Positions 55,313 to 55,908 of a stretch of 64,000 nucleotides of DNA are shown here, piece after piece (position 1 is the stretch's first letter; every line of letters begins with the position of its first letter). The stretch lies in assembly GCF_988242995.1 (NCBI RefSeq), contig NZ_OZ547043.1. One strand, written 5' to 3'. The notes under the pieces were generated by a model, which saw nothing but the letters and a program-made list of their open reading frames with translations, was not told the DNA's origin and ran no database searches. A program made the position numbers and the translations under genes.

Positions 55313-55564
55313 ATGCGTATTACCATAAAAAGATGGGGGAACAGTTCAGGTATGGTCATTCCTAATGTTGTGATGAAAGAACTTAACTTACGGCCGGGGC
55401 AGAGCGTGGAGGCGCAAGTGAGCAACAATCAACTGATTCTGACACCCATCTCCAGGCGCTACTCGCTTGATGAACTGCTGGCACAGTGTGACATGAACGC
55501 CACGGAACTTAGCGAGCAGGATGTCTGGGGTAAATCCACCCCTGCGGGTGACGAAATATGGTAA
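55313..55564 (+). CDS. chpS: antitoxin ChpS (MazE-like, AbrB/SpoVT fold)
   Basis: ORF 55307-55564; start at MRITIKRWGNSSGMVIP gives 83 aa. Confidence 0.9.
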   Translation: MRITIKRWGNSSGMVIPNVVMKELNLRPGQSVEAQVSNNQLILTPISRRYSLDELLAQCDMNATELSEQDVWGKSTPAGDEIW

Positions 55565-55908
55565 AGAAAAGTGAATTTGAACGGGGAGACATTGTGCTGG
55601 TTGGCTTTGATCCAGCAAGCGGCCATGAACAGCAAGGTGCTGGTCGACCTGCGCTTGTGCTCTCCGTTCAAGCCTTTAATCAACTGGGAATGACGCTGGT
55701 GGCCCCCATTACGCAGGGCGGAAATTTTGCCCGTTATGCCGGATTTAGCGTTCCTTTACATTGCGAAGAAGGCGATGTGCACGGCGTGGTGCTGGTGAAT
55801 CAGGTGCGGATGATGGATCTACGCGCCCGGCTGGCAAAGCGTATTGGTCTGGCTGCGGGTGAGGTGGTGGAAGAGGCGTTATTACGTTTGCAGGCGGTGG
55901 TGGAATAA
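55558..55908 (+). CDS. chpB: toxin ChpB (MazF-like endoribonuclease)
   Basis: 116-aa ORF overlapping chpS by 7 bp. Confidence 0.92.
   Translation: MVKKSEFERGDIVLVGFDPASGHEQQGAGRPALVLSVQAFNQLGMTLVAPITQGGNFARYAGFSVPLHCEEGDVHGVVLVNQVRMMDLRARLAKRIGLAAGEVVEEALLRLQAVVE

Follow-up and report, generated by a model that had tools for sequence, protein, structure and literature searches.

Two small plus-strand genes, chpS and chpB, occupy positions 55313-55908 of the window, the whole 64,000-nucleotide stretch of DNA analysed here. The order of genes around them on this E. coli chromosome is tamB, ytfP, chpS, chpB, convergent ppa and ytfQ. The region is very probably the chromosomal type II toxin-antitoxin operon chpS-chpB (chpBI-chpBK) of Escherichia coli, in intact form in this strain. 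The operon has long been known in E. coli, where it normally lies between ytfP and ppa; the finding holds, but it is an ordinary one. A preliminary description made from the letters of the sequence had already placed the pair between these neighbours, as genes for proteins of 83 and 116 aa; the open reading frames (ORFs) were confirmed, and both products matched equivalog protein models over their full length.

Genes and neighbours

The antitoxin gene, chpS (chpBI; 55313-55564, plus strand), runs from an ATG at 55313 to a TAA at 55562-55564 and encodes 83 amino acids (aa), read as an N-terminal AbrB/MazE-type DNA-binding domain and a C-terminal toxin-binding tail. The mechanical ORF list starts it instead at a GTG at 55307 (85 aa). 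We prefer the ATG because it lies 5 nt past a Shine-Dalgarno sequence, AAGGAGG (55301-55307, plus strand; read from the sequence), agrees with RefSeq and gives a model match over residues 1-83 of 83. That match is to the NCBIfam equivalog NF008463, ‘antitoxin ChpS’ (192.8 bits against a cut-off of 101; 7e-58). Residues 5-49 match PF04014 (MazE_antitoxin) at 1.5e-11, passing the gathering score, and the nearest solved structures are the MazE chains 1mvf and 1ub4 (about 7e-7), to which residues 4-83 align, the C-terminal Trp included. At the level of sequence, these matches support assignment of an AbrB/MazE/SpoVT-type DNA-binding domain to ChpS, the fold that had been proposed for the antitoxin at the outset.

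The toxin gene, chpB (chpBK; 55558-55908, plus strand), runs from an ATG at 55558 to a TAA at 55906-55908 and encodes a 116-aa endoribonuclease of the MazF/Kid family. Its product matches NF007320, ‘ChpB family toxin’, over residues 1-116 of 116 (226.8 bits, cut-off 129, 3.9e-68), and PF02452 (PemK_toxin) over profile positions 1-108 of 109 (3.7e-25; 88.7 bits, gathering score 23.1). Its nearest solved structure is Kid, 1m1f (6e-21), with several MazF proteins next, in keeping with the MazF-type toxin first described. MazE/MazF and ChpS/ChpB have separate equivalog models, and the two pairs are well resolved by them: ChpS falls far below the MazE cut-offs, and the MazF equivalogs give ChpB only 63-67 bits, below cut-offs of 120-150. 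PADLOC defence models matched neither ChpS nor ChpB, so that library lends no support to a catalogued anti-phage system.

The start codon of chpB overlaps the stop codon of chpS in the 7-bp sequence ATGGTAA (55558-55564, plus strand), an overlap noted in the preliminary description and common to the Enterobacter and Massilia homologues. A probable internal ribosome-binding site (RBS) for chpB, GGGTGA, was read from the sequence within the 3′ end of chpS (55546-55551, plus strand), 6 nt 5′ of the chpB ATG; such a motif is complementary to the 3′ end of 16S rRNA. The layout is that of a type II toxin-antitoxin system: two small co-oriented genes, antitoxin upstream of toxin, with a 7-bp overlap. 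Judged by their Pfam and NCBIfam matches, the two ORFs are not chance ORFs. Three minus-strand ORFs that overlap them (55240-55428, 55388-55618 and 55459-55683) were set aside as mechanical, given the full-length family matches of both plus-strand genes.

Upstream lies ytfP (54760-55101, plus strand), of the gamma-glutamylcyclotransferase family (PF06094, 1.2e-28), and downstream the convergent inorganic pyrophosphatase gene ppa (55987-56517, minus strand; PF00719, 5.9e-60); both names also follow the RefSeq annotation, that of ytfP in genomes 99.9-100% identical. The terminator originally reported behind ytfP (55112-55140, plus strand) stood up to the terminator scan, which finds a G+C-rich stem of 8 bp, six of them G-C pairs, at 55112-55131 with the loop TTCG, followed by the T run TGTTTTTT. 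The RNA of 55100-55160 folds at -25.2 kcal/mol (z = -3.9), and the stem is unchanged in all haplotypes and in Enterobacter. Beyond chpB, a hairpin with a U run on the minus strand (55929-55977) is probably the ppa terminator. It is kept in the relic genomes described below, folds at -18.8 kcal/mol with a z of only -0.5, and is absent from the terminator-scan calls; being the sole hairpin 3′ of chpB, it is possibly a bidirectional terminator. Rfam gave no RNA family in or beside the locus, at E <= 1 over 54700-56900 or at gathering thresholds over the whole window.

Candidate control sites upstream of chpS

The spacer between the ytfP terminator and chpS (55141-55312) is 172 bp long, and the ytfP stop is 211 bp from the chpS start, the K-12 value tabulated in PMC5120126. 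Two candidate control sites were found here, one at each end.

The first, at 55139-55154 (no strand assigned), reads TGCGAGACGACTCGCA and matches perfectly the CRP-S core of PMC1635313, TGCGA-N6-TCGCA. It is the window's sole match (0.10 expected over the 64 kb) and is a candidate site for activation by Sxy and CRP. A passage of a 2025 review (PMC11951105, citing Sinha 2009) states that chpSB is up-regulated on sxy overexpression. The perfect core fits this published induction, and it probably adds a CRP/Sxy-dependent activating input to chpSB, a function we infer from the motif and its conservation. The same bases were also scored by the terminator scan as a terminator-like hairpin (6-bp stem with four G-C pairs, tail TTCTGTTTTG), so the CRP-S assignment is a lead rather than a result.

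It is quite conceivable, though we think it somewhat improbable, that 55139-55154 is merely a second terminator hairpin behind ytfP and that the CRP-S match is coincidental. Besides the terminator-scan call, these bases fold jointly with the first hairpin; every CRP-type site, being a palindrome, is able to fold; and at least one such core turned up in 9 of 100 shuffles of the window. Set against this is the manner in which the site is conserved. E. whittamii, the relic haplotype and Enterobacter asburiae all retain, as the window does, the half-sites TGCG(A) and (T)CGCA with the exact 6-nt spacing, matching at 9-10 of 10 positions; the six bases between the half-sites have changed completely across the four diverged haplotypes. 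The hairpin has shrunk to about 4 bp in Enterobacter, and the induction by sxy overexpression described in that passage of the review also speaks for an activation site. A CRP-S core would offer a concrete, testable explanation for the induction. It would also place chpSB beside the CRP-S (Sxy-dependent) promoters of the competence regulon of E. coli, hicAB P1 among them, as a perfect core upstream of a reportedly Sxy-induced toxin-antitoxin operon; it differs from them in that the candidate site upstream of chpS overlaps a terminator-like hairpin.

The second site is a perfect 8+8 palindrome, AGTTATAC-TTT-GTATAACT (55281-55299; no strand assigned), located by inverted-repeat search, with an imperfect extension to 55276-55304. 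It abuts the chpS RBS, ending two bases before AAGGAGG. A perfect inverted repeat of at least 8 bp arose in just 42 of 2000 shuffles of the 172-bp spacer. The palindrome is identical in E. coli K-12, and its core, GTTATAC-N3-GTATAAC, recurs without change in E. whittamii and in Enterobacter asburiae, the latter with a ChpB 78% identical to that of the window; the 20 nt upstream of it have diverged. Because of its invariance in Enterobacter asburiae, the palindrome is likely to be the ChpS operator, and we treat it as a candidate binding site for ChpS or the ChpS-ChpB complex. By eye only, the pairs of Massilia and Rheinheimera have shorter palindromes at the same position, which the repeat finder did not detect.

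The spacer had been expected to carry an autoregulated promoter. The suggested search for palindromic operator repeats yielded a perfect palindrome conserved across genera, which pins the likely operator to 19 bp. For the promoter itself, a sigma-70 consensus scan of 54700-56700 found none in 55141-55312, and hand inspection upstream of chpS found just a -10-like TATACT (55284-55289), within the left arm of the palindrome, whose partner -35 is poor. The position of the chpS promoter remains inferred as a result.

From these features a scheme of control may be proposed. The N-terminal AbrB/MazE-type domain of ChpS, alone or with ChpB, would bind the palindrome at 55281-55299; the palindrome overlaps the candidate -10 and abuts the RBS, so binding there would repress the operon. 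The gene overlap and the internal GGGTGA site would couple translation of chpB to that of chpS. On degradation of the labile antitoxin, repression would be lifted and free ChpB would cleave mRNA. CRP and Sxy would supply the extra activating input at 55139-55154. Christensen et al. are said to have described, in 2003, autoregulation of chpSB and Lon-dependent turnover of ChpS. In the parD (kis-kid) promoter a palindromic operator lies by the -10, and both the parD and the mazEF promoters have an operator palindrome at the position corresponding to that found here.

We think it improbable that the repeat at 55276-55304 acts mainly as an RNA hairpin that hides the chpS RBS and controls translation, rather than as a DNA operator. 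The RNA of 55265-55315 does fold into a hairpin (-18.4 kcal/mol, z = -4.4) in which some of the AAGGAGG region is base-paired. With TATACT in the left arm as the -10, however, the transcript would begin inside the repeat and the hairpin could not form. What is invariant between E. coli and Enterobacter is the central 7-8 bp only; the outer pairs over the RBS are not maintained, with no compensatory change seen among them. The placement of the parD and mazEF operators also agrees better with a DNA site, and binding by ChpS is the reading we retain.

The allele and its known relatives

The DNA of 55141-55986 has a 100% identical copy in a RefSeq genome annotated with chpS and chpB, strain Res13-Lact-PER13-34 (WP_001223213.1 and WP_000239581.1), and RefSeq genomes 98-100% identical across this region label both genes chpS and chpB. 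The K-12 copy has 98.1% DNA identity, with protein identities of 95% for ChpS and 98% for ChpB. The K-12 operon (Masuda et al. 1993; Zhang et al. 2005) shares with the window the locus, gene order, protein lengths of 83 and 116 aa, 7-bp overlap and palindrome. It differs by four substitutions in ChpS (window/K-12: S12/A, V19/I, R27/Q and T64/A), two in ChpB (R89/H and G101/D) and, in the ppa terminator, one base of the A run; the catalytic Arg/Thr pair and the palindrome are untouched by any of these differences.

K-12 ChpB (ChpBK) is a ribosome-independent endoribonuclease of the MazF/Kid type. In single-stranded RNA it cleaves on either side of the A in ACY (Y = U, A or G) and generates a 2′,3′-cyclic phosphate; it slows growth without killing, and reduces protein synthesis without abolishing it (PMC5408214, PMC8406201, PMC12151602). 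When ChpB of the K-12 lineage is induced, the growth inhibition is neutralised by co-expressed ChpS (ChpBI) (PMC8406201). ACY-specific cleavage is assumed to carry over to the 98%-identical ChpB of this allele.

The paralogous chromosomal pair mazE-mazF (chpA) of E. coli is related at 40% identity between MazF and ChpB over 103 aligned residues (BLASTP), or 34% in a multiple alignment. Both toxins cut AC-containing triplets; MazF cuts ACA only and is strongly toxic, whereas ChpB cuts ACY and only reduces protein synthesis. The kis-kid and pemI-pemK pairs of plasmids R1 and R100 likewise have the antitoxin first and an RNase toxin of the MazF/PemK fold, Kid being 45% identical to ChpB. Unlike chpSB, kis-kid is plasmid-borne and serves plasmid stabilisation, and Kid cleaves UAH or UUACU where ChpB cleaves ACY.

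The catalytic Arg/Thr pair is common to MazF and ChpB: R30 and T52 of ChpB align by BLASTP with R29 and T52 of MazF. The MazF sequence used matched as expected. Across eight aligned homologues (the window copy, K-12, E. whittamii, Enterobacter asburiae, Massilia, Rheinheimera, Kid and MazF) the Arg at R30 never changes, and position 52 holds either Thr or Ser. For Kid the proposed catalytic residues, which we take to be R73 and D75, align with L79 and N81 of ChpB, and do so equally in the functional K-12 ChpB. The importance of the MazF-family pair is documented for R25 and T48 of MazF-bs, equivalent to R29 and T52 of MazF-ec (PMC10893535). Positions 89 and 101 of ChpB are variable among homologues, as are 12, 19, 27 and 64 of ChpS. 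With R30 and T52 kept and the substituted positions variable, the search for loss-of-function substitutions at catalytic residues, which the preliminary description had named as the finding that would count against it, came out negative. At the level of sequence, the allele shows no loss-of-function signature.

Codon differences from K-12 are distributed unevenly: six nonsynonymous and three synonymous in chpSB, none and eight in ytfP plus ppa. By this comparison the constraint on chpSB is weaker than, or different from, that on its housekeeping neighbours, and the pattern, together with the loss of the pair in 43% of E. coli genomes (below), is compatible with weak selection for function. The same codon counts might be taken to mean that the pair is present yet functionally decaying, its six substitutions weakening or abolishing toxin activity or antitoxin binding on the way to the relic state in which 2322 of 5426 genomes hold just a decayed chpB; ChpBK has, moreover, been described as a weak toxin. 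We regard this as very improbable and reject loss of function here: both frames are full length without frameshift or stop, the scores lie far over the equivalog cut-offs, the catalytic residues are kept, and the allele is widespread, with hits of 99% identity or more to 55141-55986 in 537 of the 5426 complete E. coli genomes (megablast).

Distribution, the chpB relic and the age of the locus

The comparison of presence and absence across strains that had been proposed for the pair was carried out by megablast of 55141-55986 against 5426 complete E. coli genomes, counting the pair as present at 80% coverage or more. It is present in 3097 genomes (57%); in most of the others just the flanking DNA matched. 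A chpB relic lies at the same site in 2322, including BL21(DE3) and UPEC 536, and intact and relic genomes together make up 5419 of the 5426. The relic is a 127-nt remnant of chpB nucleotides 19-145, 72% identical to the living gene, interrupted by two frameshifts and several stops and fused to the final bases of chpB; its boundaries are the same in every case examined. In local alignment it scores 53, where shuffled sequences give 9.5 +/- 1.4. Since genomes without the pair carry this remnant at the same site, absence is an old deletion. Passages in PMC11059956 and PMC7232551, both citing Fiedoruk 2015, describe chpBIK as variably present and phylogroup-linked in PCR surveys. The ‘absence’ of chpSB in 43% of E. 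coli is the scar of an old deletion, and surveys that use PCR presence or absence as a marker should allow for that.

One strain, HH45, was considered as a less decayed relic (PGAP annotates a PemK/MazF pseudogene). Its sequence combines an implausible G/C-homopolymer stretch with a segment that matches modern chpB exactly; an assembly artefact or a conversion patch is the probable cause, and the strain was left out as evidence.

The order tamB-ytfP-chpS-chpB-ppa-ytfQ was also found in E. whittamii and Enterobacter asburiae, by a cross-species contig scan (at least four loci; E. coli itself not among the matches listed) that provides synteny examples and not a distribution. GC content over the pair is 0.49-0.57, like the flanks, and the ORF list and a repeat search found no repeats or mobility genes flanking it. 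The preliminary description had called the pair a two-gene islet. The two genes and their flanks are as it said; the shared gene order, the unremarkable GC content and the chpB relic make the word ‘islet’ misleading where it implies recent insertion. On these comparative grounds the pair is an old resident of the locus. That it is instead a recently acquired mobile islet, with genomes lacking it preserving the ancestral empty site, might be argued from its presence in only 57% of complete genomes and from the related pairs in unrelated contexts in Massilia and Rheinheimera, but we reject this as extremely improbable, contradicted as it is by sites that are not empty and hold a remnant of constant boundaries, and by the synteny, the GC content and the lack of mobility genes.

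Within the intact class, and likewise within the relic class, the spacer flanks share 97-98% identity; between classes they share only 83-84%. Identity in ytfP is 99.4-99.7% across both, and the relic itself is 28% diverged from living chpB. The pattern points to two deep haplotypes or to introgression. Tentatively, and with more doubt than conviction, we suggest that the ytfP-ppa spacer is an old two-state polymorphism, of intact chpSB and a chpB relic of single origin, rather than a case of simple gain or loss. If so, either both states would have been kept since before E. coli diversified, or the intact operon would have been brought back, through recombination across ytfP and ppa, from a diverged lineage of Escherichia or of other enterobacteria. 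Taken with the conserved CRP-S site, a two-state polymorphism would make it conceivable that chpSB is a module of the competence (Sxy) regulon, retained under lineage-specific selection. In some relic genomes esiB is inserted between ytfP and the relic.

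A decayed chpB relic in genomes without chpSB

Genomes of Escherichia coli that 'lack' the toxin-antitoxin pair chpSB share one decayed relic of chpB. It consists of chpB nucleotides 19-145 at 72% identity, interrupted by frameshifts and stop codons and then fused to the last bases of the gene. In strain 2017C-4173W12 (locus L002) it lies at 1114-1270, its counterpart in the window being 55265-55895, and it is also present in UPEC 536 (L007), in L004 (another relic-class locus) and in strain 09A19CPO009 (L005). The relic was found in 2322 complete E. coli genomes and the intact pair (55141-55986 covered at 80% or more) in 3097, together accounting for 5419 of 5426. 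In strain HH45 the relic locus (L006 1370-1500), annotated by PGAP as a PemK/MazF pseudogene, contains a G/C homopolymer-like stretch and a patch identical to modern chpB; it has the look of either a gene-conversion patch or an artefact of assembly.

Haplotypes and gene content of the ytfP-ppa spacer

Two deep haplotypes emerge when the spacer flanks (55102-55264 and 55895-55986) are set against L002 and L007. Identity is 97-98% within the intact class and likewise within the relic class, but 83-84% between them, whereas ytfP is 99.4-99.7% identical across both; the divergence starts exactly at the ytfP stop codon. The sequences suggest an old dimorphism or introgression. In some relic-haplotype genomes esiB, the secretory-IgA-binding gene, sits between ytfP and the chpB relic (L005 1475-2947 in strain 09A19CPO009), and the ytfP-ppa spacer is therefore a site at which gene content changes recurrently. 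Three of the places matching the ytfP-chpSB-ppa region in the E. coli genome search belong to records whose type is given as plasmid.

Constraint and candidate regulation of chpSB

Compared with K-12, chpSB (55313-55908) has six nonsynonymous and three synonymous codon differences, against none and eight for ytfP (54760-55101) and ppa (55987-56517) together; by these counts constraint on chpSB is relaxed or diversifying relative to its neighbors. Directly 3' of the ytfP terminator is a perfect CRP-S core, TGCGA-N6-TCGCA (55139-55154; motif of PMC1635313), the sole occurrence in the 64-kb window, where 0.10 was expected. Across the diverged haplotypes, and in Enterobacter too, its half-sites keep their sequence and spacing and the bases between them vary; the core also scores as a terminator-like hairpin. 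This candidate site fits the published up-regulation of chpSB on sxy overexpression (PMC11951105).

Other elements

Gathering-level Rfam matches in the window were the RpsF leader (31215-31299), the sRNA ES239 (42737-42859), STnc490 (46560-46683, minus strand), STnc450 (48143-48200, minus strand) and naRNA4 (57816-57892), directly downstream of ytfQ. The most similar genome has a second type II pair, a RelB/DinJ-family antitoxin with a RelE-family toxin, between cybC and nrdG (L012 31717-32239), a position outside the window that would fall about 2.9 kb past its 3' end.
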